This document shows positions 29,061-55,270 of a stretch of 64,000 nucleotides of DNA, piece after piece (positions within the stretch are counted from its first letter, which is position 1; every line of letters starts with the position of its first letter). The stretch is from Candidatus Bathyarchaeia archaeon (lineage in GTDB: Archaea; Thermoproteota; Bathyarchaeia; Bathyarchaeales; Bathycorpusculaceae): assembly GCA_038882955.1 (NCBI GenBank), contig JAVZNC010000001.1, positions 64,001 through 128,000 on the forward strand. The letters are read 5' to 3'. Below the pieces are notes generated by a model. That model made no database searches and was not told the origin of the DNA. It was given only the letters and a program-made list of their open reading frames with translations. A program made the translations under genes and the position numbers.

Positions 29061-29786
29061 TTATAGTATATCTTCAAGTTCTTCATCAGCACTTTTTTTA
29101 TGCACTCTTTTAGGTCTCCTCTTCAGAACAATTATACTAAGAGGTACAAGTGGTGCAACAGTTTCAACAGCTAAAACAATGATTCTAAACTCAAATCCTG
29201 TCCAAATAGGAGGCGGATCTCTGTCTGTTACCAAACCATAAACTTCTTTATGTTCAACAGATATTGTTGGGTTTATTAGCGTTTCAACCCATGCACGTCC
29301 CGATGAAGGTCCGACTATCTCGATGGTCGTCGTCCCAGGGTTTACACAGACAAAGTTGATGGTGGCCAAAACACCAGAACCATTGGCAGAAAATCCTGCC
29401 TTAAAAATAAGTAAACCTAGGCCAGCTATCTTTCCTGCTAAATTGTCTACACTATTAACCACAAGCTTTGATGTATTGCTAACGTCTCTAAAGAAAGGCC
29501 CAAGGTAAATACTATAATTAACACCCCTAAGCAGATATCCGTTGGGATCATCAACTGCAACTTGCAATACATATGGGTCCCATGCCAGATCTAATACGAC
29601 GGCGGTAAGCAGTTCTGCATCATAAACGGAGACGTTGATTGTCACAATTTGACCCGATTGTAATTTTAGGCCATATAACCGTGTCAATTCAATTGTCGGT
29701 CCATGTGCGGGAAGAAAATAATAATATAGTACAGATGAAACTATCAACACTAAAATAATCAAGGCAAGAAGCGATTTCTTTCTCAA
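29061..29786 (-). CDS. Single cohesin-like domain with N- and C-terminal TM helices
   Basis: VTINVSV...LAWDPYVLQV...GSGVLATINF...GTTTIEI cohesin pattern. Confidence 0.7.
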   Translation of the reverse strand: MRKKSLLALIILVLIVSSVLYYYFLPAHGPTIELTRLYGLKLQSGQIVTINVSVYDAELLTAVVLDLAWDPYVLQVAVDDPNGYLLRGVNYSIYLGPFFRDVSNTSKLVVNSVDNLAGKIAGLGLLIFKAGFSANGSGVLATINFVCVNPGTTTIEIVGPSSGRAWVETLINPTISVEHKEVYGLVTDRDPPPIWTGFEFRIIVLAVETVAPLVPLSIIVLKRRPKRVHKKSADEELEDIL

Positions 29787-29910
29787 TATTCCACCATCCT
29801 CGCTGTTATTCTTTTTTGTTTTATATCCTTTGCTCTAACCTTTTTAAGTTTTTGGTGCAAAAACAGTCGGTTTGACAATAACATGACATTAAAAGAAAAA
29901 GTAGTGAGGA

Positions 29911-30957
29911 TTAATTTTTCTGAGGCGCAGATATTCTTAGTTTCGTTCGAAATCTCAGTAGAAGCGCTGCAGATATGAGAATTAACGGCAGCATTAGAAT
30001 TGGAAACTCGGGTACAACACTTGTTCCCATGATTTGAATGGGTCGTTGACTTGTGGTGAAGGTAAAGTATAGCCATGTATGCGTAGTATTCCCTCCGACT
30101 TGAGGGGTGACGAGTTCCCCGCCTACAAAAACCAGCCAGTTATCGGATGGTAGTTCAAGCCACAAGAGATCTTTTGGAATGGTAACATTAACGAAACATG
30201 TAGCACCGTCAGCTCCGGTTGCATTGAAATAAAGCATTCTATATCGCGTGTAAAGCATAATTGGAGATATTGTTGCATTACTTTCAGTAACTACGGTGAA
30301 GTTTTGGCTGTCAATAGTAATAATATGATAAAGCGTTTCTCTTTCAAATTTTAATTCATAATAACCGTGTTGTACTGTATGCGCTATTGGCTTGCCAGAT
30401 GTATCACCTGGTTTGCTTACTGTAATGTTAAGTACACAAGACAAGGATGTGCCTAGAACTGCTGGCTTGTCCAATATCTTTAGTGTTATTATTGCTGCTG
30501 CTAGTTTTCCTTCTGGGTAGCCTTCAGCCAGAGTTATATTTATGGGCGCATAGCCTCTTTCTAATGCTCTTGTTAAGTTTTGATAAGTATAGGCGTACCA
30601 GACGTGGTCTGCTGCCACTTCATTCATTAGCTGCCATATGTTTCCTGTCTCACCGGACGGTGTAACTGTTTTGAAGAGGTTTTCAGTCATATTGACCCCT
30701 TCGAGTATCGAAGAATTCCAGTATAACTTGAACTCGAAACCAGCAAGGCCTGTTATATTTGCGAGAGTTAAACTCACAGTAAAAGTATCGTTAACTGTTT
30801 TCTGCGTAATATCAAAGATGTTGTTGGGTGGATCCACAAATACTTTAGCACCGTCTGTAGCATATGCTGGAGACACCTTTGGCAACATTAGAAATGAAAA
30901 AATCATCGCAAACATCAGAGTCCACAGGAAACTTTTCACTTTTGACAAATGTTCCAT
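29911..30957 (-). CDS. Cohesin-domain surface protein with PEF-CTERM-like sorting signal
   Basis: Signal peptide; FTVSLTLANITGLAGFEFKLYWNSSIL; ends VVPEFP, TM and basic residues. Confidence 0.8.
   Translation of the reverse strand: MEHLSKVKSFLWTLMFAMIFSFLMLPKVSPAYATDGAKVFVDPPNNIFDITQKTVNDTFTVSLTLANITGLAGFEFKLYWNSSILEGVNMTENLFKTVTPSGETGNIWQLMNEVAADHVWYAYTYQNLTRALERGYAPINITLAEGYPEGKLAAAIITLKILDKPAVLGTSLSCVLNITVSKPGDTSGKPIAHTVQHGYYELKFERETLYHIITIDSQNFTVVTESNATISPIMLYTRYRMLYFNATGADGATCFVNVTIPKDLLWLELPSDNWLVFVGGELVTPQVGGNTTHTWLYFTFTTSQRPIQIMGTSVVPEFPILMLPLILISAALLLRFRTKLRISAPQKN
30485..30690. repeat. Near-identical cohesin-coding segment, copy 1 (copy 2 at 40710-40915)
   Basis: 71-nt perfect match 30485-30555 = 40710-40780, plus further identical blocks across 206 nt. 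Confidence 0.9.
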
Positions 30958-31054: not shown

Positions 31055-32326
31055 TTATTTTTTGAACTTCTTTTTCAGAAGATAAACGAATACACCAGCC
31101 CATACTAGAGGTATCAGAATGATAGTTATTATCCACCAATCGACGCTTAATGGTTCTGGCGGTTCTGCTAACGTGATCACCTTTGTTGTAGTACTAGTGT
31201 GATTTGCCTGATCTTTTACTGTTAGTGTAACATTGTATGTTCCGGGATTTCGATATAAGTGCGTCACAATAGTGCCTTTTCCGGTAAATCCATCACCGAA
31301 ATCCCAGTAATAATCAACGATTTCTGTAGTTACATCATAACTTGCAGAAGCATTAAATGTAACATTCCATTTATACGTTCCAAAGATAATTCCAGCATTA
31401 ATAACATTTTCAAACGAAGCTATAGGGGGAGTTGTGTCTACAGTAAAGTATATAGGACTTGAGGATCCTATTTGGCCTACCGTGTCGTTGGCATATACTA
31501 TTATATAATGCGATCCGTCTGGTGGGCTTATGGTTGTATTTCCATCTATTGTTACGTTTGCTTGCCCGTCCAGAACGTAACTAATCCAAACTGTTTCTTT
31601 ACTCAACGTGAATATCAGGTTGATAGGAACATTATTATAAATTATGTTTGTAGGCGATAAGATCACTATTGTTGGGGGTGGGTTACCTACAGTCACCGTA
31701 CTTTCAATCAAATTGTAATTTGCGGGTAAGGGTTTCTTTGGGTAGTCCACCACATAAACCGTCTTTTTCTGAATCGGGTCCCAGCTGCCAATTTTCAATA
31801 ATGAAAATGTTAAAGTCGCGTATCCCGTTGCTGTTGCATTTAATGTCACTACCGCTATGGTTTGGTTTCCTGATATTGGAGCATAACCCTTTTCTAAAGC
31901 TCTTGTAAGGTTCATCCACGTATAGGCATACTCTACATATCCATCAGTTACTGTATGTGATAACGCCCATATGTTAGATTGTTCACTTTCAGGAGTGCAT
32001 GCATGAAAAAGAACTTCTTCCATGTTTATTGCCTTTAGAATATTTGAATCCCAACTGATTTTAAATTGGAGACCTACAATTCCCGGATCTTGCGGCATAT
32101 TTTCAAGTTTAACGGTGATGTTAAATACGCTGCCTTCACTTACAAGTAGCGTGGCTGGATCCATTAGAATTGACGTCTCTTGTTCTTGTGCTTTTGAGAT
32201 AGAAGCGATAAAACTTAGACTAAAAATTAAAAGAATGCATATTAATGTCATTGCTGTTCGATTTTTGTTCCGTGTCGTAAGCATCGAATGTTCACCTTGA
32301 CCTACAATGGTATTTAAGTGAAACAT
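31055..32326 (-). CDS. Cohesin + Ig-like + PKD protein with C-terminal TM
   Basis: FNITVKLEN...GLQFKISWDSNIL; YANDTVG...FTVDT; WDFGDG; TM and KKKFKK. Confidence 0.8.
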   Translation of the reverse strand: MFHLNTIVGQGEHSMLTTRNKNRTAMTLICILLIFSLSFIASISKAQEQETSILMDPATLLVSEGSVFNITVKLENMPQDPGIVGLQFKISWDSNILKAINMEEVLFHACTPESEQSNIWALSHTVTDGYVEYAYTWMNLTRALEKGYAPISGNQTIAVVTLNATATGYATLTFSLLKIGSWDPIQKKTVYVVDYPKKPLPANYNLIESTVTVGNPPPTIVILSPTNIIYNNVPINLIFTLSKETVWISYVLDGQANVTIDGNTTISPPDGSHYIIVYANDTVGQIGSSSPIYFTVDTTPPIASFENVINAGIIFGTYKWNVTFNASASYDVTTEIVDYYWDFGDGFTGKGTIVTHLYRNPGTYNVTLTVKDQANHTSTTTKVITLAEPPEPLSVDWWIITIILIPLVWAGVFVYLLKKKFKK

Positions 32327-32394: not shown

Positions 32395-34284
32395 CTACAC
32401 TGTCTTGCCGAAATTTTTGGAAAGCAGAATCATATCGAATATGTCGACTATGTCATCGCCATTTATATCACAATCGGGATTCCAGTTAGGCATTCCAGGA
32501 TTAGTTCCGAAGGCGTTTGAGGCCAGCAATGCATCTAGAACATCGACGATGTCGTCTCCGTTAATGTCGCCGGGGATCTTTATTTTTACAGTTCCATCAA
32601 AGAAGATGTTGTCTGTTATGTCTAGTTCATAAGGAACGGAGGGAACTTCGGCTTTAATTGTGTGATTTCCGAAAGGAACACCGTTAGTGCTCCATGTGAT
32701 TGTTTCTGTTGCATCCTCGCTTGGAGGCAGATCAGTTATATTAATTGTCATTATTATGGTATCGTCATAATAGATTTTTATGCTAAAGGTTTCTGTGATG
32801 TTACCTTCATTTCTTACAGTTACTGTGATGTTTGCTTTTTGGCCTTGATATACTGCTGTTGGATACGCGTAGAGATCAACAATTGCTATGTCTCGTATTA
32901 GACTTTGGAAAAAGCCATTGTATGTTTCGTGGGCGATCGGTTGTCCTATTGAGTTTATGAGTTTGGTGTTGCAGAGGGTCAGATTGCTTGAGCCTATAGC
33001 CTTAACTCTGAATTTGATGCTCGCTAGGGGGGTTTGTGCGTAGATGTTTAGGGGTGTGGCTGGCGGGTAGTAGGTTACGTTTATGGTTATGAAGCCTTTT
33101 AGGTTATCAATGTATTGGTTCGGTATGTAGTTTGTCTCGTTTAAGACATCGTGGATGGTTATTTGGAGGCAGATAAGTACATTTGGATTGAAGGTTAAGT
33201 TGAACTCGTATCCGTAAAGGTCTTCTACATCAGCAATGGTTACATTGATCGTGAATGTTGATGGAGGAAGCAATGTTGGATCAATTATTTCTTCTGGTTG
33301 CACGGCAAGTTTTGCTAATAATATGTTGTTGAAACTGCCACTTGAAGCTGTGTGCGGTAGGGGTTGACCTATTATGTCGAATAGTTTTGTGTCATAGAGG
33401 TTTAGAGGTGATTTCCCTAGACCTTCTACGTGGAATGTTATTATGGCTAAGGAGCCGTTGCCGCTGAGGGATGTCCCAAGTGAGACGTTAAATCGCATAT
33501 ACCCAGCAGCGTTGTTTATTTCGATGTTTGGAGTTACGGAAGGTGGAATGAAGTCACCTTGTTCGGCTTTTACCACGCTTAGTATACTGTTGTCGAAGCC
33601 TAATTTGAATTCGACACTGTAGATGTCAGTGGCTTTGCTGATGTTAACGTTAATTGTGAAATTGTGGCATGGCGTAAGGGTTATGTCGAAAATTTTTGGT
33701 GGATCTACGAAAAGTAATGCTGGTAAGGGTGGTGGAGAATTTTGGAAGTAGCCGTCAAATGCTTCGTGTGCGATCGGTTTACCTTTTGGATCTCCAAGTT
33801 TTGTGTTAGTTAGATCTAGAATTGTTTTTCCCACACCTTTTACTTTAAGCGTTATTATTGCGGCTGTATGATTGCCGGATATCGGTGCATATCCTTTTTC
33901 TAACGCTCGTGTTATGTTCATCCATGTGTAGGCGTACTCTGCATAACTTGCGGTTACATCATGGGCTAGCGGCCATATGTTACTTTTTTCGTTTGGTGGG
34001 GTTACGGAGTTGAATAAAATTTCTGTCATGCTTACTCCTTCTAGGATTGTGGGATTCCAAGTAATTTTGAATTGTAGTCCTACTAGTCCTGGATCTTGAG
34101 GTATGTTCTCGATTTTTACGGTTATGTTGAAGGTTTTACCCGGAGTTAGTGTTTGGTCGATTATTGATGACGGGACTATGTAGATTTTTGTATTTTGGGC
34201 GTATACTTTTGTTGGTGTTGTGAAGATGTAAAGAAGGGATAGCGCGAGAATCGTGAGGATTATTCCTTTTATTTTTTGTTGCAT
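32395..34284 (-). CDS. Scaffoldin-like protein: 3 cohesins + CARDB + dockerin
   Basis: Three F(N/T)I(T/N)V...(Q/E)F.(I/L).(W/F)(N/D)..(I/V)L modules; DIAIV...VRNEG CARDB; duplicated DINGDDIVD..D dockerin at the C-terminus. Confidence 0.85.
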   Translation of the reverse strand: MQQKIKGIILTILALSLLYIFTTPTKVYAQNTKIYIVPSSIIDQTLTPGKTFNITVKIENIPQDPGLVGLQFKITWNPTILEGVSMTEILFNSVTPPNEKSNIWPLAHDVTASYAEYAYTWMNITRALEKGYAPISGNHTAAIITLKVKGVGKTILDLTNTKLGDPKGKPIAHEAFDGYFQNSPPPLPALLFVDPPKIFDITLTPCHNFTINVNISKATDIYSVEFKLGFDNSILSVVKAEQGDFIPPSVTPNIEINNAAGYMRFNVSLGTSLSGNGSLAIITFHVEGLGKSPLNLYDTKLFDIIGQPLPHTASSGSFNNILLAKLAVQPEEIIDPTLLPPSTFTINVTIADVEDLYGYEFNLTFNPNVLICLQITIHDVLNETNYIPNQYIDNLKGFITINVTYYPPATPLNIYAQTPLASIKFRVKAIGSSNLTLCNTKLINSIGQPIAHETYNGFFQSLIRDIAIVDLYAYPTAVYQGQKANITVTVRNEGNITETFSIKIYYDDTIIMTINITDLPPSEDATETITWSTNGVPFGNHTIKAEVPSVPYELDITDNIFFDGTVKIKIPGDINGDDIVDVLDALLASNAFGTNPGMPNWNPDCDINGDDIVDIFDMILLSKNFGKTV

Positions 34285-34336: not shown

Positions 34337-34351
34337 TGGAATTGTTTTCTA
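34337..34351 (-). promoter_or_regulatory. Shared operator copy 2 (TGGAA TTGTT TTCTA)
   Basis: 5 nt upstream of TTTATAA of the scaffoldin gene; overlaps the stop codon of the upstream gene. Confidence 0.65.
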
Positions 34352-36388
34352 TGATTTTTTATTTGGGTATATTTTGTCTTTTAGGTTGTAGCCGTAGTAC
34401 CATGCTGTCCATCCGTTGTGGAAGGCTTCCGTTTCTTCTCTTTTCCTTTTTCTGTGGTAGAGCCAAATTATTAGCAAAAATATTAGGAGTAAGAGTAATA
34501 TGAGTAGCCAGTAGAACCATTCTGGGATGAACCAGCCTTTTGGTGGGGTCGAGATTGTTATTGTGCCGTTTGTGAGGTAGTTGTCTTCTGTGTCTTCTTC
34601 GTCTTGGACTGGCGTTGCGAACGCGCTTAGGATGTAGTTGCCTTCTGTTATGTTTTTGGTGTTCCAAAGGAAAGTTAGTATCGTTGTGCTGTTTGATGTT
34701 AGATTGTTTACTGTCTGGGTTTCGATGGCTGTTGTGTTGTGGTAGACTGTTACTTGGAATGATTCATCGTAATTTCCTTCGTTTTTGGCGACTACTTGGA
34801 TGGTTATTGTTTCTCCGATGTATGCTGTTTGGGTTGATGGTTGGATGCTTAGGAGGGCGATGTCATGTATTGGGGTTTTAACTCGCACTATTCCGTTTGT
34901 GAAGTTGTTGTCGGATATATCGATTTCGCCTTGGACAGGTTCTGCGTAGGCGCTTATTTCATAAAAACCCTCATCCACACCAAAAGTAACCCAAACGAAA
35001 GATAGTGTTGCTTGGATCCCGGATGAAAGATTTACTATTTGACAAGTTTCAATTAAATTTAAGTTTTGATACTCAATTTTTCTATAATAAATACTTAAAT
35101 TGAATGTCTCTGGAACTGTTCCTTCGTTTATAACATCGACGTTTATGTGAAGCGATTCGCCGACATATAAGCTTTCATTTGAGATTGTGATGTTTACAAT
35201 GGCAATATCATGAATAAAAGGTGGAATTTCTTGTTTAATTTCGATAATTCCATCAAGAAACCTATTGTCTGTTTTATCTGTTTCGTTGGTTAAGTAAGGA
35301 ATAAAGGCAATTACCGTGTAATTTCCAGTCTTAAGAGAGGATGTATTAGCAATGAAGTTTAAGGCTATTCTTGAATATGGCGTAAGTTTGGTTACTTCTA
35401 TATTTTCAATGAGGGTATCGTTAAAATATGTTATTACGTCAAAACTCTCAATTTCCGTTCCCTCGTTTTGAACAAATACAGTTATATTCACAAGCTGACC
35501 TTGATTGACAGATCTGGCTGAAGAAATTACTCTTGTGATGGCTACGTCGTGGAAACATAATGCCAATGGTGGTGAAGGCGTAATAAAAAATTCTACCGAT
35601 ACGGCAGGACTATAAGGGATTCCACCTTCATTTATTGATTTTGTGAGTGGAACTACACTTGCGATTGCTTTTCCTATGTGTGACCATTTAGGAATATATG
35701 CCTTACAATATAATATTACTGGTTTCTCATTGGGATAAACTTCAAAATTAGGTACTATAGAGAAGTTGACGGGTACTCCTACCTCGTCTTGTATGGTTAT
35801 GGCGAGTGTGACATTCTTTTCTATCATCGCCATATTTTTTAGCGCAATCTCTAGTCCTACGTCACCCTCAATTCCGAAAAATGCTTGGTAATTGTTATTT
35901 TCGTTAATGGTTCGGACTTGTATTATTTTTACAATATAATCTACTTTAAAGGTGAGTGTATCTTGAACGACTTTGTTTCCAACGATAGTGATGGCTAGAA
36001 CAAACCATTCTCCAAAAAATTCGGTTTCGTTTTCACATTTTTGGGGTATTGTGAAATTAGTTGTTGCAATACCACTTGCATTTGTTACACCGAAGAGAGT
36101 GAAATAGGTTCCTTCAGGGACTCGTATGTGAAAAGATACGAAATAATTTTCGCGGGGATATCCGTTATATGTAACTAGGGCAAATAAAATAACGGCTTCG
36201 TTAGGACCAAATGAGTCGCTTGGCGTATTCGGCCCTCTTCCACAGTATGGTTCTTTTTGTGTGAACACGTCAATTTCTTCAATAGCATCTTCAGAAAAAA
36301 TTAAAACCATGTTTCTTGATACTCCATCGATAAGAATCAGCATCATTATTGCCAAGGCTAACGTTTTCGGTAGAGTTTTCATCATCAT
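34349..36388 (-). CDS. Surface protein: uncharacterised IDxFTQ module + 3 CARDB + TM
   Basis: Signal peptide; three HD(V/I)A...NEG CARDB repeats; TM followed by a cytoplasmic tail containing GWTAWYYGY. Confidence 0.82.
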   Translation of the reverse strand: MMMKTLPKTLALAIMMLILIDGVSRNMVLIFSEDAIEEIDVFTQKEPYCGRGPNTPSDSFGPNEAVILFALVTYNGYPRENYFVSFHIRVPEGTYFTLFGVTNASGIATTNFTIPQKCENETEFFGEWFVLAITIVGNKVVQDTLTFKVDYIVKIIQVRTINENNNYQAFFGIEGDVGLEIALKNMAMIEKNVTLAITIQDEVGVPVNFSIVPNFEVYPNEKPVILYCKAYIPKWSHIGKAIASVVPLTKSINEGGIPYSPAVSVEFFITPSPPLALCFHDVAITRVISSARSVNQGQLVNITVFVQNEGTEIESFDVITYFNDTLIENIEVTKLTPYSRIALNFIANTSSLKTGNYTVIAFIPYLTNETDKTDNRFLDGIIEIKQEIPPFIHDIAIVNITISNESLYVGESLHINVDVINEGTVPETFNLSIYYRKIEYQNLNLIETCQIVNLSSGIQATLSFVWVTFGVDEGFYEISAYAEPVQGEIDISDNNFTNGIVRVKTPIHDIALLSIQPSTQTAYIGETITIQVVAKNEGNYDESFQVTVYHNTTAIETQTVNNLTSNSTTILTFLWNTKNITEGNYILSAFATPVQDEEDTEDNYLTNGTITISTPPKGWFIPEWFYWLLILLLLLIFLLIIWLYHRKRKREETEAFHNGWTAWYYGYNLKDKIYPNKKS

Positions 36389-36511
36389 CGCATATTATTA
36401 CTCTATCTTGACTTCTTTAATGGTATTCTTTAATCAGAAATATTACTATGATAGATATCAGTTCACGAATTTCGTTGGGTTAATTTTGTCACTGATTGGA
36501 TGGTTTTGCAA

Positions 36512-38113
36512 TTAGATTGATTCTCCATAATGCGCTGAGAGGATGATTGCGTCGAATATGTCTATTTCTCCTGAGTTGTCGAGGTCTGCGTTGGGGTTCC
36601 AGTTTGGGTTGCCGGGTTTGGCGCCGAAAGATATGCTTAACAATATAGCGTCGAATATATCCACTGTTCCGTCACCATTAATGTCGCCTAGTAACGCGAT
36701 AAAACGAACTATTACAATTTTTGTTTCATTATCTTTAAGTCCACCAGCATCGGTTATCGTTAGCGTTACTGTATAGTTTGCTTCCGCTGAATATTTGTGA
36801 GTTATTGTGGGGTAATTTCCGCTTGTTATGTTTCCGTCTCCAAAGTTCCATTCATAATTAACTATCGGTGGGCTAGCTGTTCCATTCCAGCCCAGTTTCG
36901 AACTTGTAGCATCGAAGGTTACGGTTTGATTTACGAGTGGAGTTGATGGGTACCATATGAAGTTGGCGGTGGGTCCTGTTGGAGGAAGTATTGTTATAGG
37001 TTTGGATGTTATAGACCACAAGCCTTCACTATCTGTGACATTGAGTGTAACAATGTAGGTGTTAACTTGCGTAAACGTATGGTTGATTGTAGGAGTCGTT
37101 TTGGATTCTTTTGGTGTGCCGTCACCGAAGTCCCATTCATATTTGACTATTGTGTCGTTGTATCCTTCTGCTGTTGATGATGAGGCATCGAAAGCGATGC
37201 TCATGTTAACGTAGGGTTCAAGTGGTGTATAAAAGAATGAAGCTTGAGGTGGAGAGGGTGATGACTCAACTTGGAAGGTTGTTGCATTTTGGATTAATGT
37301 TGAGTCTTTGCTGGTGCTTGTATAGATTGTGTAGATTCCTGATTTTGACTCGGGATGCAGTCTCAAGTTTGTCAAAAAGGTTCCTTCATTTGTAGGTGGG
37401 GTGCTTGGAGGAGTTGTGGAATAGGAAAGTTCTGGGTTTCTTTTAATTTCGAAGGATACAGATTTTTCTGGACAATATGGAATCCCGCCGTCTTTCGGGA
37501 GATTTGAATATATATTGGCAAATATTGTTGCATTTCCTGGATATGCCCATGGGTCTAGGCGTGTTGCCATAAATGAAAAGGTTCTGCTTTCTCCAGGGTT
37601 AAGTGTGGGGTTCATTGGATACCAGACGCCAAGGGGGATGTTGTTTCCATCATAAAGGGTTAAGGCAACCAGCGCACTGTGAGGTTGGCTATCAAAGTTT
37701 TTGATTGTGCCTCTTATGTAGAGGATTTGTTTTACAATAAAGGAGTATTTTGGATTTCCATCTATAGAGTCTGTTGGATAAAGACTTACAAAGTTTACTG
37801 GCCACGTGGTTGCAGAGATATTTCCTGTAGGCACTGTTCGAAAGATGATGGGTAAATTAGAAGGATTTCGTATTTCTACGGCTACGAGGGCATTTGAAAT
37901 TGGTGTTCCATCCTGTTTTAACGCCCCTTGGATTAGTATGTTTTCCCTTATGTAATATGCTGGTTTGTTTGTTGAAACGGCAAGGTAAAGTGGATCGCTT
38001 GATTGTGATGAGTGACATATTGGTAATTTTATAATTATTAGTATGGAGAATAGTAAACAAGTGGATAATACTTTTTTTAATTGCAACAATCCGTCACTCC
38101 TTTTAAAAAGCAT
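36512..38113 (-). CDS. Secreted protein: Ig-like module + 2 PKD + dockerin
   Basis: STNKPAY start, two W(D/N)FGDG motifs, GDINGDGTVDIFD...DLDNSGEIDIFD. Confidence 0.85.
   Translation of the reverse strand: MLFKRSDGLLQLKKVLSTCLLFSILIIIKLPICHSSQSSDPLYLAVSTNKPAYYIRENILIQGALKQDGTPISNALVAVEIRNPSNLPIIFRTVPTGNISATTWPVNFVSLYPTDSIDGNPKYSFIVKQILYIRGTIKNFDSQPHSALVALTLYDGNNIPLGVWYPMNPTLNPGESRTFSFMATRLDPWAYPGNATIFANIYSNLPKDGGIPYCPEKSVSFEIKRNPELSYSTTPPSTPPTNEGTFLTNLRLHPESKSGIYTIYTSTSKDSTLIQNATTFQVESSPSPPQASFFYTPLEPYVNMSIAFDASSSTAEGYNDTIVKYEWDFGDGTPKESKTTPTINHTFTQVNTYIVTLNVTDSEGLWSITSKPITILPPTGPTANFIWYPSTPLVNQTVTFDATSSKLGWNGTASPPIVNYEWNFGDGNITSGNYPTITHKYSAEANYTVTLTITDAGGLKDNETKIVIVRFIALLGDINGDGTVDIFDAILLSISFGAKPGNPNWNPNADLDNSGEIDIFDAIILSAHYGESI
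36521..36592. repeat. Identical dockerin-coding segment, copy 1 (copy 2 at 38238-38309)
   Basis: 72-nt exact match read from the sequence. Confidence 0.9.
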
Positions 38114-38140
38114 TATTGATATGAAAACTAATAAGGTTTC

Positions 38141-45234: not shown

Positions 45235-45235
45235 G

Positions 45236-46408: not shown

Positions 46409-46409
46409 A

Positions 46410-47549
46410 ATGTCGGAAGAAATCCTTCAAATAGATGATCTTCAACTAAAGTTTTATACATACGAGGGAGTTGTTGAAGCTCTAGACGGAGTCAAAATAA
46501 ATCTCAAAAAAGGAGAAACGTTAGGCATAGTCGGTGAAACTGGATGTGGAAAATCAGTCACTGGACTTTCAGTTATGGCAATAGTACTACCCCCAGGAAA
46601 GATAGAAGGTGGACAAATAATCTTCAATGTAAAAGGACGAGCCATAAATCTGCTAAACTTAAGAGACTCCGTACTGAGGAAAATCAGAGGAAAATATATT
46701 TCAATGATATTCCAAGATCCCAGATCCGCTTTGAATCCCGTTTATACAGCCGGAGATCAAATAATTGAAACTCTTCTTAAACATAAGATTAAAGAACTCG
46801 CCGAAAAAGCGATAGAAGAACTAGATAAGGAGACACAGAACAAAAAAGCAAATTTTCTAACAAAATACTATAGAAATAATTTACAAAAAATGATACTGAA
46901 TCCAAAGGCTCTTAGTTTAAAAATCACTTCAAAAATTCCTTTACTTAACAGATATAAAAAATTACTATTTAAACAAGCAAAAAAAGAAGCCGTTAGAATG
47001 CTTAGACTAATGCGAATACCCGACCCTGAAAGAGTCGTAGACATGCATCCTCATGAACTCAGCGGAGGAATGGCACAACGCGTAGTAATAGCAATGGCAC
47101 TCGCATGCAACCCAGAAGTACTGATAGCAGACGAACCTACTACAAATCTTGACGTGACAGTTCAACTTCAAATACTAAACCTATTAAGAGAACTAAGACA
47201 ACAATTCTCTTCATCCATCATTTACGTAACGCATGATATGGGTGTAGTGGCGGAAATGTGTGACCGCGTTGCAGTCATGTACGCTGGAAACGTTGTGGAA
47301 ACAGCTGATGTATTTGAACTCTTTAAAAACCCACTGCACCCATACACAAAAGGATTATTGGAATCGATACCAAGACCAGGACACCCATTCAAGTCTATTG
47401 AAGGCACTGTTCCTAGCCTAATAGATCCACCTAAAGGCTGCCGATTCCACAACAGATGCCAATACGCCATGGAAATATGTACTAGAGTTAAACCTAAAAT
47501 AATTGACGTTGGAAGAAATCACTTTGTTCAATGCTTCTTATACCAATAA
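46410..47549 (+). CDS. dppD: Oligopeptide ABC ATPase (DppD/OppD)
   Basis: [34 protein letters not shown]. Confidence 0.93.
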
Positions 47550-48609
47550 AGATGTGAGAACAATGAAAACATTAATAGAAGTAAGAAGATTGAAGAAATA
47601 CTTCCCAGTTTTAGGAGGAGTCCTAAGAAGGAAAATTGCTGATGTTAAAGCTGTAGACGATGTAAGTTTCACAATATTCAAAGGAGAATGCTTTGGTCTA
47701 GTAGGAGAATCTGGTTGCGGAAAAACCACGCTTGGCAAAACAACAATTCGCTTACATGATCCAACCGCCGGCAGCATATACTTTGATGTCCCAGAAGACA
47801 TCATAAAAGAGATAGAGGAACTAGAAAGAAATGATCCAAAATCTCATAGATTAAAAGAGTTAAGAAGAAGATATGATCTTGCAACGTACAGGGGAGCAAT
47901 GCTTGCTAGCATGAGAAGAAGAATGCAAATAGTGTATCAAGATCCAACAACATCGTTAAATCCGAGGATGCTTGTGAAAGACATCGTTGCAGAACCACTA
48001 ATTGTACAAGGACTCGCCAAAGGTTTGGAAGCAAGAAAAAGAGTTTTAGAGATCCTAAATAGGGTAGGATTAACAGAAAGACACCTATATCGATATCCAC
48101 ATGAATTTAGTGGTGGGCAGAGGCAGAGAATAGCAGTAGCAAGGGCGCTGGTGACTAACCCTGACTTTATAGTGTTAGATGAACCCACATCCTCTGTAGA
48201 CGTGTCGGTTCGCGCCCAGCTACTAAATCTGTTTCAGAATTTACAAAAAGATTTGAACTTAACATACGTATTCATAAGTCATGACTTAAGCGTTGTCGAA
48301 TGCATAGCGCAAAGGGTAGCAGTTATGTATCTTGGGAAGATCGTGGAAGTAACACAAACAGAGGAACTATTCAAAAATCCTCTTCATCCATATGCTCAAG
48401 CATTGTTTTCGGCAATACCAATTCCAGATCCTACTATCAAAAGAAAACCAATAATGCTTACGGGAGAGGTGCCTAGCCCAGTTAATCCTCCTACGGGTTG
48501 TAGATTCCACCCAAGATGTCAATACGCCATGGACATGTGCAGCAAAGAAGAACCACCACTTAAGGACGTTGGAAATAACCATTTAGTAGCTTGCTTTGCA
48601 GTCGATTAA
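47503..48609 (+). CDS. dppF: Oligopeptide ABC ATPase (DppF/OppF)
   Basis: [29 protein letters not shown]; start probably at MKTLIEV. Confidence 0.93.
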
Positions 48610-48989: not shown

Positions 48990-49379
48990 ATGGAAAAAAA
49001 GTGGGTGGACAGGCAAATTTCGCTTGCAACATTAACAGCCCGAATTGGAGAATTTCTTAAGGATAAAGATTTTGAAGCAATAAAAGGACAAACAAGTGAA
49101 GGTTACCAGATTTTTGCTGGTAACTCTCCACGTTTTAAAATTGATGGATATATAAATGTAGCAATTAGGGGAGAACCAAACAATTTTAGCGTGAAATTTG
49201 AACATTGTAACACTCGTAAAAAGTTTTTTCCTGTCTTGTTCTCTACATTGATCTTTGGGGGATACCCTCTCTTACGAAGCATGAAATCCACGGAGGATTG
49301 GATAAAGTTAGAAAGGGATTTTTGGACGTACGTAGACAACACTATTCTTCAACTAACTGGTTCAGAAAACCAGTTATAA
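48990..49379 (+). CDS. Hypothetical protein
   Basis: 129-aa ORF with a short hydrophobic segment. Confidence 0.7.
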   Translation: MEKKWVDRQISLATLTARIGEFLKDKDFEAIKGQTSEGYQIFAGNSPRFKIDGYINVAIRGEPNNFSVKFEHCNTRKKFFPVLFSTLIFGGYPLLRSMKSTEDWIKLERDFWTYVDNTILQLTGSENQL

Positions 49380-49398
49380 AACAATAAAAACCAGTGAG

Positions 49399-50046
49399 CT
49401 ACTTTTTTCGGCTATCTCTTGGTTTAATACGTTCATGTTTGGAACCAGTAGCAGCAACAACAGAAATAACAATACCTACCAAGCTTGTGATTCCACCTAT
49501 CGGGACAAATGCAAGATAAGGAGTTACAACAATTTCTTTATAAAGTATCATTTTATCCGGAGGCCCAGATGTCCAATTTAAAAGACCTTCATCGTTCAGA
49601 ATATGGACAGTGTATGTTCCATTGTATTTCACAGAAAAGCGAATTTGCGGGTAAAGCTCGTCCACCACTAAACTGCTCGAATCTATTTCAAGATATTTTG
49701 TTCTATAGAGAGACGGAAGAGTTCCTAAATGCATACCTTGTGCTGGAGCAGCAATAAAAAAAGCTTGAACTCTTGTCTTTGCTTTGTTAGGCGAAATTAT
49801 TTCTATAAAAATCGACGTAAAATCTTCAGGAACATCTTCTTGTGGATAATCATATCGCCACTGCTCACTTGCCTTTATATCGATCACATACGTTTCTTTT
49901 TCGGTGAGGTTCCAAGAACACTCCCAACTATTCTGAGCAAAGTCAATTTGCACCTTTCTAGTGTTTCGCATTAGCGATGCAAAAGTCAACAACGTTAAAC
50001 CTATAGTCAGAAAAATTATTCCTGCTACAAACGCGGCTCTTTTCAC
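49399..50046 (-). CDS. Membrane protein (2 TM flanking an extracellular beta domain)
   Basis: Hydrophobic N- and C-terminal helices, GAGG upstream. Confidence 0.75.
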   Translation of the reverse strand: MKRAAFVAGIIFLTIGLTLLTFASLMRNTRKVQIDFAQNSWECSWNLTEKETYVIDIKASEQWRYDYPQEDVPEDFTSIFIEIISPNKAKTRVQAFFIAAPAQGMHLGTLPSLYRTKYLEIDSSSLVVDELYPQIRFSVKYNGTYTVHILNDEGLLNWTSGPPDKMILYKEIVVTPYLAFVPIGGITSLVGIVISVVAATGSKHERIKPRDSRKK

Positions 50047-50115
50047 TTCTCTACCTCATTAAATTTCAAGAAAGAGCACCTTCATTAACTTTACTCCAAC
50101 ACAAAACTCTTTCTT

Positions 50116-50481
50116 TTAAAAGTGTCTCAAAAATCTTCTAAATAGATATACCAGAATGAATGATAACGCGAAGTATATAACAAAATCCAATAGTAAGCCA
50201 CCCCAAAGCACCCTAATTATTCCACTACCAGAGTGATATATCCAAAAATACTCTATATCTGAAAGAGGAGTTAGAATTCCGATCATTTTAAAAGGAAAAC
50301 CGTAATATGCGATGTGAACGATATATTTTAGGACACCAGTTTCTAAAGTAACGCTGATCTCGGTTGTCGATAATTCAGTGTAACTAACGAAGGATATCAA
50401 GAGAAAAAGAAAAGTTAATAATAAAATGATGATGTAGTCCTTTCGATCAAGATAAACATGTATGCTTGCAAAGGTGTTCAT
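50116..50481 (-). CDS. Small membrane protein
   Basis: Two TM helices, YYGFP motif. Confidence 0.65.
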   Translation of the reverse strand: MNTFASIHVYLDRKDYIIILLLTFLFLLISFVSYTELSTTEISVTLETGVLKYIVHIAYYGFPFKMIGILTPLSDIEYFWIYHSGSGIIRVLWGGLLLDFVIYFALSFILVYLFRRFLRHF

Positions 50482-50574
50482 GACTTGTTCTCACATTTAC
50501 ATAAATTTAAGTTTTTTTAAGCAACTTAAGCAATTATCTTCTTTTTCATCTAACAAGCGTTGCTCTCGGAAAAT

Positions 50575-51921
50575 TTATTCACTCATAAATTCTAACAAAA
50601 GAAAAACTAGTGCTATTGCCATGAGTTCCCAGAACACTGTAACATATTCATCAGCTATCACCTTAATAGGCGTAATTGAATTCAGAGTCATCGTTGTTGA
50701 ATAGAAAATCACGGGACATAGTAATGTTCCAGAAAAATTATAGAATGTTCCAAGAAAAGCTGCTAAAAAGAAGAAGTAAATTAATTCGAGTAGAAGATGA
50801 GATGGATTAAGTGGAAATATTGAAAATCGATATACTGCAAAAAGGATTGATGCTATAAGCAGAGCCTTTACAGAATCAAACTTTTTTCCGAGTTCACTCT
50901 GAAGATATCCTCGAAAAAGGGTTTCGCCAACTAAGCTAATAAAAAAACCAAGAAAAATGAATAATAAACACTCTATAAGCGACGGAGAAGGAAAAACATA
51001 GTATTCCGCAAAAAATCCTGGTAAGAAAAAGACTACAAAATTATATGCCACAGCCAAGAATAAACTACCATACATACATTTGTAAAAGCTTCTAGGCCAC
51101 CGATAACCATATTCTTTGAGATTTGAATCTTTTCCTATAACAATAAAGAAGAATAAGACAAGATACATGAATTGAATCAAAAGCTGTAGAGAATAGTGAA
51201 TTGTGTCGGAAAAAAGGGATTTAGATATAAGCGCATTTGCAATTTGCCACGATAGTATAAGAAATACATAAAAAAGAACAACTCTTTTGGTTTTAATTGA
51301 GAAACTTGCAGTTTTAGTGACAACAGATCTTCTAGAACGTTTGGAAATTTTAATAGGACCCACTATCAACATACAGAAACCGAGAAAAACGAGTGCAATC
51401 AAATATACTGCAAGATAACTAAAAATCATTAAGTCACGTATTGTGGTTCGTATGACTACTGATATAGGAAAATATGTAACGTCTTGAAGGTAGCATTCTT
51501 TTCCATCATACCAGTATAATTCTATTTTAACATCATAAGATGTTGGCTTTAAGGTCTCCAGTGAAGGAATGTTATAATACCGCGTAATGCTACTTCCCAC
51601 ATTACACTGCCATGTCTTATAGTTCGTGTTATTGAACTCATTCCACCAAATTTCATCATTGAGGTAGATCATTAAGAAGAAAGAGGGAATGCCATATTCA
51701 TTTGCTGAACAGTTGGTGTTATGCACCGTCAAACGCCAAATGTTATTTTCCCCCTCATAGACCACTCTTGGGCAATCAATTTTTTCAAAATATGCTCCTA
51801 AAGCCCCACTTTTTTCAGGTATCTGCACTGAATATAAATAATTCAAACAACCTATAATTATGACTGTGAAAATAAATAAAAAAATGAGGCATGTTTTAAA
51901 TTTCACATCGTAACCTCTCAC
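50575..51921 (-). CDS. CPBP (Abi/CAAX protease-like) membrane protein with extracellular N-terminal domain and degenerate active site
   Basis: GETLFRGYLQ and ASILFAVYR in a multi-TM C-terminal half. Confidence 0.75.
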   Translation of the reverse strand: MRGYDVKFKTCLIFLFIFTVIIIGCLNYLYSVQIPEKSGALGAYFEKIDCPRVVYEGENNIWRLTVHNTNCSANEYGIPSFFLMIYLNDEIWWNEFNNTNYKTWQCNVGSSITRYYNIPSLETLKPTSYDVKIELYWYDGKECYLQDVTYFPISVVIRTTIRDLMIFSYLAVYLIALVFLGFCMLIVGPIKISKRSRRSVVTKTASFSIKTKRVVLFYVFLILSWQIANALISKSLFSDTIHYSLQLLIQFMYLVLFFFIVIGKDSNLKEYGYRWPRSFYKCMYGSLFLAVAYNFVVFFLPGFFAEYYVFPSPSLIECLLFIFLGFFISLVGETLFRGYLQSELGKKFDSVKALLIASILFAVYRFSIFPLNPSHLLLELIYFFFLAAFLGTFYNFSGTLLCPVIFYSTTMTLNSITPIKVIADEYVTVFWELMAIALVFLLLEFMSE

Positions 51922-52003: not shown

Positions 52004-55000
52004 TTATGGGTCTGTTTCTCCGAAGTGAGTTGAGAGGATGATGGCGTCGAAGATATCTATTTCGTTTGTGTTGTCGATGTCTGCGTTTGGGTTCCAGTTT
52101 GGATCGCCTTGTTTGGCGCCGAAGGATGTGCTTAACAGTATTGCGTCGTAGATGTCTATTGTTCCGTCTCCGTTGATGTCGCCTGGAATGCCAACGTAAA
52201 CTATGCCATCGCTAAACGTGTTGTCCGCGGTTTCGGTTTCGCTTGGAACAGGCCAAGCATAAGCCCACATCGTATAATTGCCCTTAGTAAAACCACTAGT
52301 GTCCCATGCGAAGGTTAACGTGATATTCTCACCCGAATTTAAGGTTATTTCTTGTGTTCCGATTTCGGTGGAGTTTGCATAGGCAGTTACGTTGAAAGTT
52401 TCAGAATAGTCGCCTTGATTCTCAACAGTTACATAAACGCTACAAGTGAAGTTATTACCAACAGTGGGCATAGGCGAACATCCAGTCTTGGAAGTTGTAA
52501 TGTTTTTGACGGAAACATCATGCACATAAACAGCGTATGGGCAAGTTATCACTGCAGCCTCAATCTGCCATATGGTGCCAGGTGGATTAACTATTGACCC
52601 AGGATAGCCGATGATTGCAAGTGGGCCGCCTGGACATGGCTGTATTATGACTTTGTACATGTCGTGTGAGACCAAGTTAGCTTTGTTGTGTGTAATGTAT
52701 GGTGGTTCAGGTGGTGGGTGAACATGCGGGACTGGAACATTGCCCGGTCCTCCTGCTTCTGCATTGTCGTTTATTGGGTCGCTTAATACTATTTCCCATG
52801 TAGTAGCGTTTAAGCCTGCAACTGTGACGTAATGTGCACCTTCATCGTAGCGGTACCATTCAACGCCGTTATAGTACCATGGAGCAATAAGTAAGACAAC
52901 GTCTTGGCATCTCATAACTTCATCTACGATAAGTTCCCATGGAGGCGCCATCACTGTATGTTCATAGAACATTCCGCTTAAGCCCATATTCATCTGCACA
53001 AGCATAAGATCATTCATGTTTATGACATTGTCAGCTGTTGGTGGATATGTCGTCGTTGCTGGCCATATGTCGGCTCTGATGTCCCAGCCTGGCATTCCTG
53101 GACTTGTTCCCCAAGCAGCAAGAACTATTGCTTGGTCATTCTGGGTGACAATTCCGTCTCCGTCCACATCTCCAAGCGGGTTCACTCCGGTCCACGATAG
53201 ATAGTGCGTCAGTCCAGCTTGCATGTCGAAGACATTTGTACCAAGCTTAACAATGCCTGTTCTTAAGCCGTTCGTATCCATCAAATATGCCAAATGCTCA
53301 ACCAACGGCTGAACGTTCTGCGGGTCATGGTCGTCCCATGGACCGTAGGCTTGAACCAGCGGATAGTTGTCAATTATTGTTGGTGGAGGCACAGTGTTTG
53401 GCTCGAACTCTGAGTCTAGCCACCAAAGCGAGTTTGCAACAGCAACTGGTCCACAGTGGCTCCAGCGTTGCGCAGAATCCCACCAGGGGTAGGTGCCGAG
53501 TTGTCTTTGGTCGAAGTCTGGCATTCCACTCGGAGCGTAATCTGGGAATGGGGGCTTCATGTACCATGATGGTGACGGAGGAGGTCCCTCCGTTATTTTC
53601 TTAACAGTGATGTCTAACGCTACTTCGTCGACTAGGCACCGCATAGTTCCGTCGGGGCTTTGAAGTTCGAGGATGTCAAAGTGGCTGAGGATTCCATTAC
53701 AGTTGTCGTACCACTTCTCGATTGTAAGTGGATAGCCAAATCGGTTGGTTGGACAGACTACTTCCCAACCAGTGTATAATGGGTTTGTCTTTGGATAGTA
53801 CATTAGCTTCCAATTGTACATGGCATCAAGATACTCTACGTATATCCGTTCTCCTACCGTGAATGGCATGGTTGGGTCAACATCGTTTACTGTGAGGTTG
53901 AGGGTAAGTGTCACGTTTTCTACATGATACTTGTCGGTCGGACCAGTTGGCAGAAGCGTCAGAGTGATGTTATAGCAAGGACTTAGCTGTCTTTCGCCAG
54001 GGCCTTCCCAATCTAATGTGTAATAGTCATTGACGCAGCAGTTAGGGTAAAGTTCATGCCAAACTATGCCATAGGTTATGTCATAGGGAGCGATAAACTC
54101 CTCGTTGAGGATTACGTCTATTGAAATTTCTTCAACGTGCCACCAACCATAATAGAAGTCTATGTTCAAATCGTACATTTCAATGTAGTCGCAGGAGTCA
54201 AGCACTCCGTTACAGTTGTCTATCCAACTAGTAATGTTCATAGAAGCGGAATAGGATGGGTAGACTTCGTGCCATGTTGAGTTTACCACCGTTGTCTTAA
54301 TATTGTACATCGTCTCGAAAGGCCCTTTATATTCGATGCACATTTCTTGCATAGGATCGCTTTCATTGATTACCCTCATTGTAAAAGTTACCCTGTCAAC
54401 ATAGTACCATTTTGTCATTCCACTTGTCTGGTTAATCATTTCAATGTGATCGCCGGGGCTAAGCATTTCATGGAACAATATGTCTTCAGGTGGTTCTTCC
54501 CAACGGGTGGTAAGGTGGTAGTTGCAGAAGTTTGGGTAAAGTTCATGCCACTCGATGCCAATAGGGTTCGTAACTTTTTCGTTTAGGATCAGATCCGTAG
54601 CATATTCTTCAACGTGCCACCAAAGTCCTGGCCATTGTCCGAACTCGATCCAGTCGCAGACGCCCAGATAGCCTGTGTTACCTATCCCAGTGTCTTGCCA
54701 GTTAACGATGTGGTATGGGTTTCCTGGACCGAACACTCCATGGTAGACGGGCCATACTTCGTGCCATAGGGTGCATATGGGTTGAATATATGGGTTGTAT
54801 GGTCCTTTAAATTCAACGTATATCTCTTCGTCATGCGTGTTCCGCAACTTCATTGTCATTGTTACTCTGTCTACATGGAACCAGTGCATTTTTTGAGAAC
54901 CGATGATAGTCATGCCGAATTGGTCAGAAGAGTCAAGATAACCGTTGCCGTTGTCTGCCCAAGCCCAGAGATGCCAGTTTTCGCAGTACGTGGGGTAAAG

Positions 55001-55270
55001 TTCGTGCCAAATGAAGCCAACTGGGTTAGTTAGGTCTATTATTCCTATTGTTGAGTGCATGTGGATGGGTGTGAGAGGTAGACCGTGCATGTGGATAGGT
55101 GTTAAAGAAGGACCATGAAGATAAATGAGCCCCTCGGACTGTGCTATTGCAGGTAGTTTCAAGTTAACTAGCAGCAGAGATGAAAACAGCAAAGCCAAGG
55201 TGAAAATAATAGAAACCCTCTTCTTATTAGACGTTGACATTTTCCTTTCTCCCCGTGTTTTATTTTTCAC
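52004..55270 (-). CDS. Secreted multidomain protein: 6 WHExYP repeats, putative C39-like cysteine peptidase with inserted dockerin, CARDB, C-terminal dockerin
   Basis: Signal peptide; FDQ...HCGPVAVAN, GAHYVTVAG, LSDP; internal GDVDGDGIV; terminal GDINGDGTIDIYD...DIDNTNEIDIFD. Confidence 0.8.
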   Translation of the reverse strand: MKNKTRGERKMSTSNKKRVSIIFTLALLFSSLLLVNLKLPAIAQSEGLIYLHGPSLTPIHMHGLPLTPIHMHSTIGIIDLTNPVGFIWHELYPTYCENWHLWAWADNGNGYLDSSDQFGMTIIGSQKMHWFHVDRVTMTMKLRNTHDEEIYVEFKGPYNPYIQPICTLWHEVWPVYHGVFGPGNPYHIVNWQDTGIGNTGYLGVCDWIEFGQWPGLWWHVEEYATDLILNEKVTNPIGIEWHELYPNFCNYHLTTRWEEPPEDILFHEMLSPGDHIEMINQTSGMTKWYYVDRVTFTMRVINESDPMQEMCIEYKGPFETMYNIKTTVVNSTWHEVYPSYSASMNITSWIDNCNGVLDSCDYIEMYDLNIDFYYGWWHVEEISIDVILNEEFIAPYDITYGIVWHELYPNCCVNDYYTLDWEGPGERQLSPCYNITLTLLPTGPTDKYHVENVTLTLNLTVNDVDPTMPFTVGERIYVEYLDAMYNWKLMYYPKTNPLYTGWEVVCPTNRFGYPLTIEKWYDNCNGILSHFDILELQSPDGTMRCLVDEVALDITVKKITEGPPPSPSWYMKPPFPDYAPSGMPDFDQRQLGTYPWWDSAQRWSHCGPVAVANSLWWLDSEFEPNTVPPPTIIDNYPLVQAYGPWDDHDPQNVQPLVEHLAYLMDTNGLRTGIVKLGTNVFDMQAGLTHYLSWTGVNPLGDVDGDGIVTQNDQAIVLAAWGTSPGMPGWDIRADIWPATTTYPPTADNVINMNDLMLVQMNMGLSGMFYEHTVMAPPWELIVDEVMRCQDVVLLIAPWYYNGVEWYRYDEGAHYVTVAGLNATTWEIVLSDPINDNAEAGGPGNVPVPHVHPPPEPPYITHNKANLVSHDMYKVIIQPCPGGPLAIIGYPGSIVNPPGTIWQIEAAVITCPYAVYVHDVSVKNITTSKTGCSPMPTVGNNFTCSVYVTVENQGDYSETFNVTAYANSTEIGTQEITLNSGENITLTFAWDTSGFTKGNYTMWAYAWPVPSETETADNTFSDGIVYVGIPGDINGDGTIDIYDAILLSTSFGAKQGDPNWNPNADIDNTNEIDIFDAIILSTHFGETDP

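Follow-up and report, generated by a model that had tools for sequence, protein, structure and literature searches.

Many archaea and bacteria that do not degrade cellulose carry cohesin and dockerin modules, and what these do outside a cellulosome has been a question since their first observation in Archaeoglobus. It is raised again by a 64,000-nucleotide stretch of DNA (positions 64,001 to 128,000 of contig JAVZNC010000001.1; hereafter, the window) from a Candidatus Bathyarchaeia archaeon, in which a set of genes lying between positions 29061 and 55270 encodes cohesin- and dockerin-bearing proteins. The original prediction, made from the sequence alone, regarded this locus as a surface complex coupling proteolysis to peptide uptake. 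Our analysis points instead, with a probability of about 0.7, to a non-cellulosomal cohesin-dockerin system by which secreted proteins would be tethered to the archaeal surface and whose conserved core would be the docking of an OppA-type receptor onto a short membrane anchor.

The host assembly comprises 1.54 Mb in 31 contigs and the window is a chromosomal stretch, with FtsZ, RNA polymerase subunits and an ATP-dependent DNA ligase among its core genes. Genes are named here by their first coordinate in the window. Nine genes in the same direction occupy the minus strand from position 44029 down to 29061, separated by intergenic gaps of 64-132 bp and diverging from the oppBCDF genes (44179-48609), and a tenth relevant gene (52004-55270, minus strand) sits beyond four genes encoding small or membrane proteins. 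As had been proposed, all the proteins of this array are predicted to be secreted and are encoded on the same strand: membrane-segment prediction gave an N-terminal hydrophobic leader in the ten of them, all on the minus strand. A C-terminal membrane helix was found only in four of the ten (29061, 29911, 31055 and 34349) and in none of the dockerin proteins.

Cohesin modules and scaffoldins

The search for cohesins was performed with the Pfam family PF00963 (gathering cut-off of 24.1 bits), both by hmmscan of the proteins and by a six-frame search, and with a local hidden Markov model (HMM) whose seeds were six window modules, both of those of 39356 included and that of 29911 left out. Together with profile matches to the PDB, these searches gave eight cohesin modules in five genes of the window, the number originally counted. 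The Pfam cut-off was passed by 32395 (90.6 bits), 39356 (38.7 bits) and 31055 (24.6 bits in the six-frame search; 23.7 by hmmscan), while 29911 stayed below it (15.5-16.5 bits) and 29061 had no match. The 29911 module was matched by the local HMM, built without it, with an E-value of 1.2e-49. For the second module of 39356 the local HMM scores (1.8e-52 and 1.9e-41) are circular because this module is itself a seed, and its independent score is the Pfam one alone (17.7 bits, six-frame search). As for 29061, it was recovered by the second iteration of the local HMM (E 2.4e-4), PF00963 was present in 20 of its 34 homologs, the query being counted among the 34, and all 18 matches at E ≤ 1 of the 29061-family profile (A2) against the PDB were cohesin or scaffoldin chains, the best being 3l8q_A (1.9e-7). 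The local HMM, the homologs and the PDB-profile matches settle the cases of 29911 and 29061, and the count of eight cohesins in five genes is correct. When the A2 profile was run over 401 genomes of the class it gave 293.7 bits for its own gene and 71 bits for the next best, and it matched cohesins generally (43 genomes) instead of singling out 29061 orthologs; this run was not used for synteny.

Three of these genes encode membrane anchors with one cohesin each. The product of 29061 (29061-29786, minus strand) is a small anchor of 241 residues made up of a leader, a divergent cohesin (approximately residues 30-190), a conserved PPPIW motif, a helix (200-221) and a charged tail. That of 29911 (29911-30957, minus strand) contains a leader, a group-A cohesin (35-207) with 62% identity to the first cohesin of 39356, a stalk domain of about 110 residues and a helix (312-337), and that of 31055 (31055-32326, minus strand) a leader, a group-A cohesin (49-213), a Big_13 domain, a PKD domain (PKD_4, 66.4 bits) and a helix (392-418). 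The products of the other two genes have no membrane helix. The first, 32395 (32395-34284, minus strand), is an adaptor scaffoldin in which the leader is followed by three cohesins (30-185, 188-322 and 324-465), a CARDB domain (44.8 bits) and a dockerin (566-629), and its orthologs in three related loci (L078, L081 and L085) have three or four cohesins and a dockerin. The second, 39356 (39356-41200, minus strand), is a free scaffoldin, also devoid of dockerin, with a leader, two cohesins (42-212, of group A, and 216-373) and a C-terminal beta-rich domain. Multi-cohesin scaffoldins and anchoring scaffoldins are consequently both present and, together with the dockerin cargo, they compose the full hierarchy of anchors, adaptor and cargo that had been put forward.

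The 29911 protein ends in ...VVPEFPILMLPLILISAALLLRFRTK, which we take to resemble a PEF-CTERM-type sorting signal. One match to the exosortase/archaeosortase family was found in the genome (contig C2, 209497-210261; 33.2 bits).

Dockerin modules

In the C-termini of the proteins, hmmscan with Pfam Dockerin_1 (PF00404; cut-off of 22.9 bits) gave 29.6 bits for 52004, 28.0 for 32395, 27.8 for 36512, 26.1 for 38226 and 21.7, below the cut-off, for 41333. In the six-frame search the five dockerins of the window were over the cut-off (25.6-33.1 bits), the lowest value corresponding again to 41333. All five contain two tandem Ca-loop repeats with D or N at loop positions 1, 3, 5, 9 and 12. Alignment of ten dockerins of the genome also made both repeats visible (e.g., DINGDGTVDIFD and DLDNSGEIDIFD), with D12, D20, D23, D45 and D56 invariant, and the Pfam matches and this alignment bear out the five genes with duplicated Ca-loop dockerins that had been listed. 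In addition, the dockerin of 52004 matched a solved one, 2y3n_B, with an E-value of 6e-11. A split of the dockerins into two classes, one of receptors and adaptors and another of cargo, was considered and rejected, as a FastTree phylogeny of 48 dockerins gave no clean separation.

The peptide receptor, its importer and their synteny with the anchor

The gene 41333 (41333-44029, minus strand) encodes an OppA-type substrate-binding protein (SBP_bac_5, 109.6 bits) that ends in a spacer and a dockerin (837-898), without C-terminal membrane helix, and it is the sole SBP_bac_5 match in the whole 1.54-Mb genome. Divergent from it, on the plus strand, are oppB, oppC, oppD and oppF (44179-48609), which match BPD_transp_1, OppC_N, ABC_tran and oligo_HPY and whose products are, judging by these families, the permeases and ATPases of a peptide-type ATP-binding cassette (ABC) importer. 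The peptide receptor had thus been rightly placed next to a peptide importer. Three genes regarded as accessory to Opp and the anchor are also found here, encoding a 129-residue protein (48990-49379, plus strand), a 215-residue protein with two membrane segments (49399-50046, minus strand) and a 121-residue membrane protein (50116-50481, minus strand). They are accompanied by a gene for a CPBP/Rce1-like intramembrane protease (50575-51921, minus strand; Rce1-like, 41.7 bits), which gave 32.6 bits with the MrtS-type CPBP model, far under its cut-off of 130. The NCBIfam scan of the window returned only weak CPBP/MrtS-type matches, far below their cut-offs. This CPBP protein might sort or process the anchor.

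The conservation of this neighbourhood was studied in 67 metagenome loci gathered with the 29061-family profile, of which 53 reached the threshold for a 29061-type anchor (coverage ≥ 0.6 and E < 1e-15) and were counted, the other 14 being left out. An OppA-type receptor or opp genes were present in 28 of the 53, and in 22 of the 31 whose flank measured 5 kb or more. The receptor gene lay less than 400 bp upstream of the anchor and on the same strand in nine loci, and accessory genes of the type found at 48990-51921 stood beside the anchor in 26 of the 53. Moreover, the local HMM detected a dockerin on 14 of the 21 receptors of the related loci. Because this genome has a single SBP_bac_5 gene in its 1.54 Mb, the closeness of anchor and receptor is far from what chance would give.

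Three arrangements were distinguished. The first consists of the receptor, divergent oppBCDF, a 130-residue gene and the anchor, facing the 215-residue gene, the 121-residue gene and CPBP, and it is complete or nearly so in L043, L044, L047, L054 and L057. In the second, oppFDCB faces a receptor-dockerin gene followed by the anchor (L062, L068, L070 and L076); L062, L068 and L070 are minimal loci with a receptor-dockerin gene and an anchor only, and L068 and L070 have no cohesin gene other than the anchor over approximately 10 kb upstream. In the third, the anchor ends a cohesin/dockerin array as it does in the window, the gene order of L081 being identical. In addition, the Bathyarchaeia record L034 has its opp genes flanked by the receptor and by a 29061 ortholog (39% identity, 2e-50), the latter beside oppF. 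The 41333 orthologs of L034 (64% identity) and L033 (85%) keep the dockerin. The latter locus (JAHAWU010000127.1) is a 10.9-kb contig binned as Candidatus Jordarchaeia that holds CPBP, the 215-residue gene, oppFDCB and the receptor-dockerin gene in the same arrangement; it would be a Bathyarchaeia contig placed in the wrong bin or else the product of a recent transfer.

Probable tethering of secreted proteins to the cell surface

In the tethering reading that we prefer, 29061, 29911 and 31055 would be type-I membrane proteins, each exposing one cohesin outside the membrane, and the adaptor 32395 and the free scaffoldin 39356 would multiply the sockets. Dockerin-ended proteins, often by means of a CARDB/PKD-dockerin cassette, would plug into them non-covalently. 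The original and conserved job was probably the tethering of 41333 to a short 29061-type anchor beside OppBCDF, which would keep this receptor at the membrane of a cell without outer membrane. The variable accessory passengers would be 52004, 36512, 38226, the NosD-like beta-helices, a PQQ-type propeller and a Liv-type receptor. In favour of this reading, the Liv-type receptor is dockerin-tagged and encoded on contig C18 beside a permease, an equivalent scheme in a second importer, and a second cluster on contig C6 has a comparable layout.

Several points weigh against this reading. First of all, binding itself, the pairs that bind and their cellular location are read from sequence. The related loci share ancestry and the synteny counts are not independent events, and the figure of 22 of 31 stands without the background of a control neighbourhood. 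In the window, 11.5 kb separate 41333 from the 29061 anchor, which occupies the opposite end of the array. It could also be that residues 6-28 of 41333, its N-terminal hydrophobic segment, act as an uncleaved signal anchor, in which case retention would not depend on the dockerin, which might serve to recruit another partner. Finally, in the FastTree phylogeny the dockerins of several loci cluster by genome or locus and not by carrier, so that any specific cohesin-dockerin pairing is tentative. A predicted complex between the 29061 cohesin (residues 28-192) and the dockerin of 41333, modelled without controls, scored 0.05 versus a mark of 0.32, a value that speaks neither for nor against their binding.

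A more specific form of the tethering reading, which we advance only tentatively, is a docked-receptor ABC importer, that is, a Bathyarchaeia module of about ten genes in which cohesin-dockerin binding would replace the anchoring of the receptor by a lipid or a helix. Equally tentative is its composition, which might include OppBCDF, the dockerin-tagged OppA, the single-cohesin anchor, the CPBP protease and three small proteins, membrane segments being predicted in two of the latter. If this were true, receptors would be exchangeable, a single anchor would carry several of them through the three-cohesin adaptor, and it could even carry a receptor and a peptidase together as an antenna. Myxosortase-type CPBP enzymes process or sort the C-terminal helices of proteins in bacteria, and in such an importer the CPBP protease would do likewise with that of the anchor.

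Cohesins and dockerins in the genome and the MG2-fold cargo

The whole genome contains 15 cohesin modules in nine open reading frames (ORFs) and 13 dockerin ORFs. The latter correspond to three scaffoldins, three binding proteins, three NosD-like beta-helix proteins, two MG2-fold proteins, one PQQ-type propeller and one peptidase-like protein. The binding proteins are 41333, the Liv-type protein of contig C18 and an internally deleted remnant on contig C7. A second cohesin-dockerin cluster, located on contig C6 (66498-78071), repeats the layout of anchor, scaffoldin and cargo with two NosD-like dockerin proteins, a two-cohesin scaffoldin with a degenerate dockerin (ORF 73397), and three-cohesin and one-cohesin membrane proteins. 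The flank of this cluster holds a gene for a secreted subtilase in which a fervidolysin-type prodomain and Big_7 domains, but no dockerin, were recognised. Cohesins were patchily distributed among the other sampled genomes of the class, being present in 27 of 150 and, within the same family, in 8 of 15.

The Liv-type protein (Peripla_BP_6; C18, 1248-2855) bears its dockerin at the C-terminus and its gene adjoins that of a LivH-type permease, and a paralog on contig C2 (21640-22929) lacks the dockerin and starts with a membrane helix at the N-terminus. The C7 remnant (19938-20562) derives from a second OppA-type receptor-dockerin gene, deleted and lying in two frames, which retains the equivalents of residues 2-98, 652-710 and 840-897 of 41333.

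The two MG2-fold proteins are encoded in the window. The product of 36512 (36512-38113, minus strand) contains a leader, an MG2-type domain, two PKD domains (PKD_4, 99.3 bits) and a dockerin (470-533), and that of 38226 (38226-39248, minus strand) a leader, an MG2-like sandwich interrupted by an Ig-like one (97-222) and a dockerin (277-340). Residues 42-282 of the former show 40% identity with the latter. The AlphaFold2 model of 38226, with a mean predicted local distance difference test (pLDDT) value of 94.6, superimposed on the MG2 domain of C3 (Z 13.5, root-mean-square deviation 1.9, 101 residues aligned) and on that of alpha2-macroglobulin (Z 13.1, 97 of 97 aligned). It was this model that settled the fold, the ESM Atlas matches of residues 30-275 being only leads below 0.9 (MG2, SlaA-like and CARDB). 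No catalytic domain was recognised in 36512 or 38226 by the family scans or by the 38226 fold match.

Such cargo speaks for a surface coat or an adhesion system, in which a beta-rich, non-enzymatic layer of MG2, PKD, CARDB, NosD-like and propeller proteins would be the essential part, attaching cells to one another or to a substrate, and the receptors only occasional passengers. Most of the cargo of the genome is indeed non-enzymatic and beta-rich, and the family of 38226, with 675 representative clusters, is a large one whose members usually bear the dockerin tag, Dockerin_1 being present in 48 of 71 aligned members and MG2 in 13 of them. Adhesion was also the first proposal made for anaerobic methanotrophic archaea (ANME), in a study where cohesin and dockerin domains were counted (Timmers et al., 2017; PMC5244752, available text). 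However, the genes most consistently conserved around 29061-type anchors are those of the Opp importer and not those of coat proteins, and the minimal loci hold nothing but the receptor-dockerin gene and the anchor. We find this explanation rather doubtful as an account of the whole system, but an adhesion or coat role for the beta-rich cargo is compatible with the tethering reading.

The papain-like cargo protein

The gene 52004 encodes, after its leader, a repeat region (60-560), a papain-like core (565-915), a CARDB domain and the C-terminal dockerin (1024-1088), and its family numbers 873 proteins or more. Its structural model was confident at approximately residues 590-1088, with a short dip at 845-867, and not at residues 1-565. 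When the whole model was compared with the PDB by Foldseek only CARDB or Ig-like matches were obtained, and the core emerged in a wider structure search, in which it matched IdeS (Z 12.0), staphopain C (11.7), interpain A (11.5), the C39-like 3erv (11.3), SpeB (11.0) and also PeiR (10.6). In an alignment of 41 sequences of the family Gln590, Cys606 and His813 were invariant and Asp831 was conserved in at least 90%. In the model, Cys606 opens a helix (606-622) and His813 a strand (813-821), a papain-like layout. PF13529 (Peptidase_C39_2) had no match in 52004 at E ≤ 0.1, nor at E ≤ 1 in the six-frame search; among eight homologs, six passed its cut-off (24 bits), one gave 22.6 bits and one had no match. 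The putative peptidase of the original prediction is in this way confirmed as a papain-like, Peptidase_C39_2-related protein, the modelled fold and the invariant residues indicating a putative cysteine peptidase.

Two peculiarities of this protein were observed. A dockerin-like module (699-760), with the first Ca loop intact and the second one expanded, is inserted inside the peptidase domain, and in the homologs P0028 and P0039 a Dockerin_1 match lies between the N- and C-terminal halves of Peptidase_C39_2. The region 60-560 is composed of about seven repeats of 60-80 residues (WHE[LV]YP ... W.HV[DE]) with conserved Cys, Trp and His. It is conserved in the 41-sequence alignment, has pLDDT values below 50 and gave no Pfam or NCBIfam match and no usable ESM Atlas match.

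In an integrated machine of the kind first proposed, 52004 would cut proteins beside the docked OppA receptor and the resulting peptides would pass into OppBCDF. In support of such proteolysis-coupled uptake, there are the papain-like core itself, a dockerin of a type shared with other cargo (72% identity with that of 36512), the location of 52004 at 8 kb from 41333, the peptide or amino-acid type of both dockerin-tagged receptors, and the subtilase gene flanking the C6 cluster. However, that subtilase lacks a dockerin, and isopeptidases and amidases are likewise found among clan CA folds, PeiR being one of the matches, so that proteins are only a candidate substrate of 52004. In addition, the 67 related loci yielded no homolog of the peptidase core. 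Thirteen of these loci have a DNA ligase gene in the neighbourhood of CPBP and the accessory genes, and it follows CPBP immediately when the two genes are complete. As CPBP and ligase are adjacent in relatives and the peptidase is absent, 52004 must be considered a local insertion between them. Finally, a peptidase-like protein accounts for one of the 13 dockerin ORFs of the genome and, in the Pfam-type family scan, for none of the 45 of the related loci, which comprise 12 SBP_bac_5, one SBP_bac_8, seven cohesin-bearing, three BNR_2, one GH43-like and one PQQ-type ORFs. The dockerin cargo is then mostly non-proteolytic, contrary to what a complex built for proteolysis would have, and since the peptidase is a single, locally acquired passenger, proteolysis-coupled uptake is weak as an explanation and we consider it unlikely.

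With regard to carbohydrates, the original statement that no glycoside hydrolase is recognisable agrees with the Pfam scan of the window proteins, which had no match to glycoside hydrolase families. Likewise, none of the 13 dockerin ORFs of the genome matched, at the thresholds used, glycoside hydrolase, polysaccharide lyase, carbohydrate esterase or carbohydrate-binding module (CBM) families, and no SLH or CBM family was matched. The same census that disfavours proteolysis thus upholds the non-cellulosomal character of the system. A true polysaccharide-degrading cellulosome with enzymes too divergent to be recognised is highly improbable, because the cellulosome-like architecture of scaffoldin, adaptor and anchor, the fold class that NosD-like beta-helices share with pectate lyases, and the BNR_2 propellers and the GH43-like ORF of the related loci are opposed by this lack of matches, by scaffoldins without CBM and by an identified cargo made of a peptide-type receptor, a cysteine peptidase fold and MG2 sandwiches.

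Comparison with known systems

Bathyarchaeia are abundant heterotrophs of sediments and hot springs, thought to live partly on detrital protein, and for this reason peptide capture by them bears on carbon cycling. A limited literature search, at the level of listings, yielded no paper on a cohesin-dockerin system in Bathyarchaeia. The tethering design itself is already published for ANME archaea. In the available text of Chadwick et al. (2022; PLoS Biol, PMC9012536), ANME are described to have scaffoldin-like proteins that combine a dockerin with as many as five cohesins, as well as dockerin-tagged NikA/OppA and TroA binding proteins, whose pairing is said to need experiments, and the idea that archaeal systems of this kind were known only from Archaeoglobus is therefore outdated. 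As far as that text goes, both systems are archaeal and non-cellulolytic, combine a dockerin with several cohesins in one scaffoldin (here, 32395 and C6 ORF 73397), place a dockerin on a NikA/OppA-type receptor (here, 41333) and are known from genome annotation only. Unlike ANME, which belong to Halobacterota, the host is here a member of Bathyarchaeia (Thermoproteota), and a dedicated single-cohesin anchor travels with oppBCDF, CPBP and small membrane proteins, a feature that the same text does not mention for ANME. The cargo differs as well, since it includes the papain-like peptidase and the MG2-fold proteins and no S-layer-domain dockerin protein was seen.

For the Archaeoglobus fulgidus pair, binding has been reported (Bayer, 1999; Haimovitz, 2008; both as cited in the text of PMC9012536 available). 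It shares with the present system the archaeal, non-cellulosomal nature of its modules. In contrast to the archaeal systems then known, which according to that text had no multi-cohesin scaffoldin, 15 cohesins in nine ORFs and 13 dockerin ORFs are found here. The likeness to clostridial cellulosomes resides in the same Pfam modules, in best PDB matches that are cellulosomal (2y3n_B and 3l8q_A), in the three-level hierarchy and in the duplicated Ca loops of the dockerins. Unlike them, no carbohydrate-active enzyme or CBM was matched in the cargo, a transport receptor is part of it, and anchoring would be achieved by C-terminal membrane helices and not by SLH domains or sortase. The 52004 core has the fold of clan CA peptidases such as staphopain, streptopain, IdeS and the C39 domains of PCAT (Z 11-12), and its dockerin-like insert in the peptidase domain, C-terminal dockerin and long repeat region distinguish it from Peptidase_C39_2.

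What this locus adds is a dedicated anchor-receptor gene pair, the conservation of CPBP and of small membrane proteins as its companions, and a family of peptidases whose catalytic domain has a dockerin inserted. It also offers a minimal testable pair, the dockerin-tagged OppA-type receptor and the one-cohesin membrane protein of 241 residues, which are adjacent in several relatives. If both bind, they would show how some archaea lacking an outer membrane retain transport receptors at their surface. Moreover, modules from a thermophile could serve as orthogonal display tags.

Neighbouring genes and other observations

The remaining gene of the array, 34349 (34349-36388, minus strand), encodes a membrane-anchored surface protein with three CARDB domains by Pfam and a predicted membrane helix (619-647), and without cohesin or dockerin. 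Its N-terminal domain (residues 39-261) is homologous to the C-terminal part of 39356 (residues 379-604), with 36% identity. The gene 25912 (25912-28890, minus strand) encodes another surface protein devoid of cohesin and dockerin, with four PKD domains and Flg_new_2 by Pfam and a predicted C-terminal membrane helix, and probably belongs to the same surface-protein array; its homologs come after the anchor gene in L083 and L087.

Two sequencing runs, X1 (with a share of 0.99 of positions 36000-45999, and perhaps the origin of this DNA) and X2 (from a second study, with a share of 0.28), are labelled hot springs metagenome, and no RNA run was listed for these positions. RNA polymerase subunit A, which is split into A' and A'' in most archaea, is encoded at 7301-11131 of the window by one unsplit ORF of 1276 residues with Rpb1 domains 1-5.

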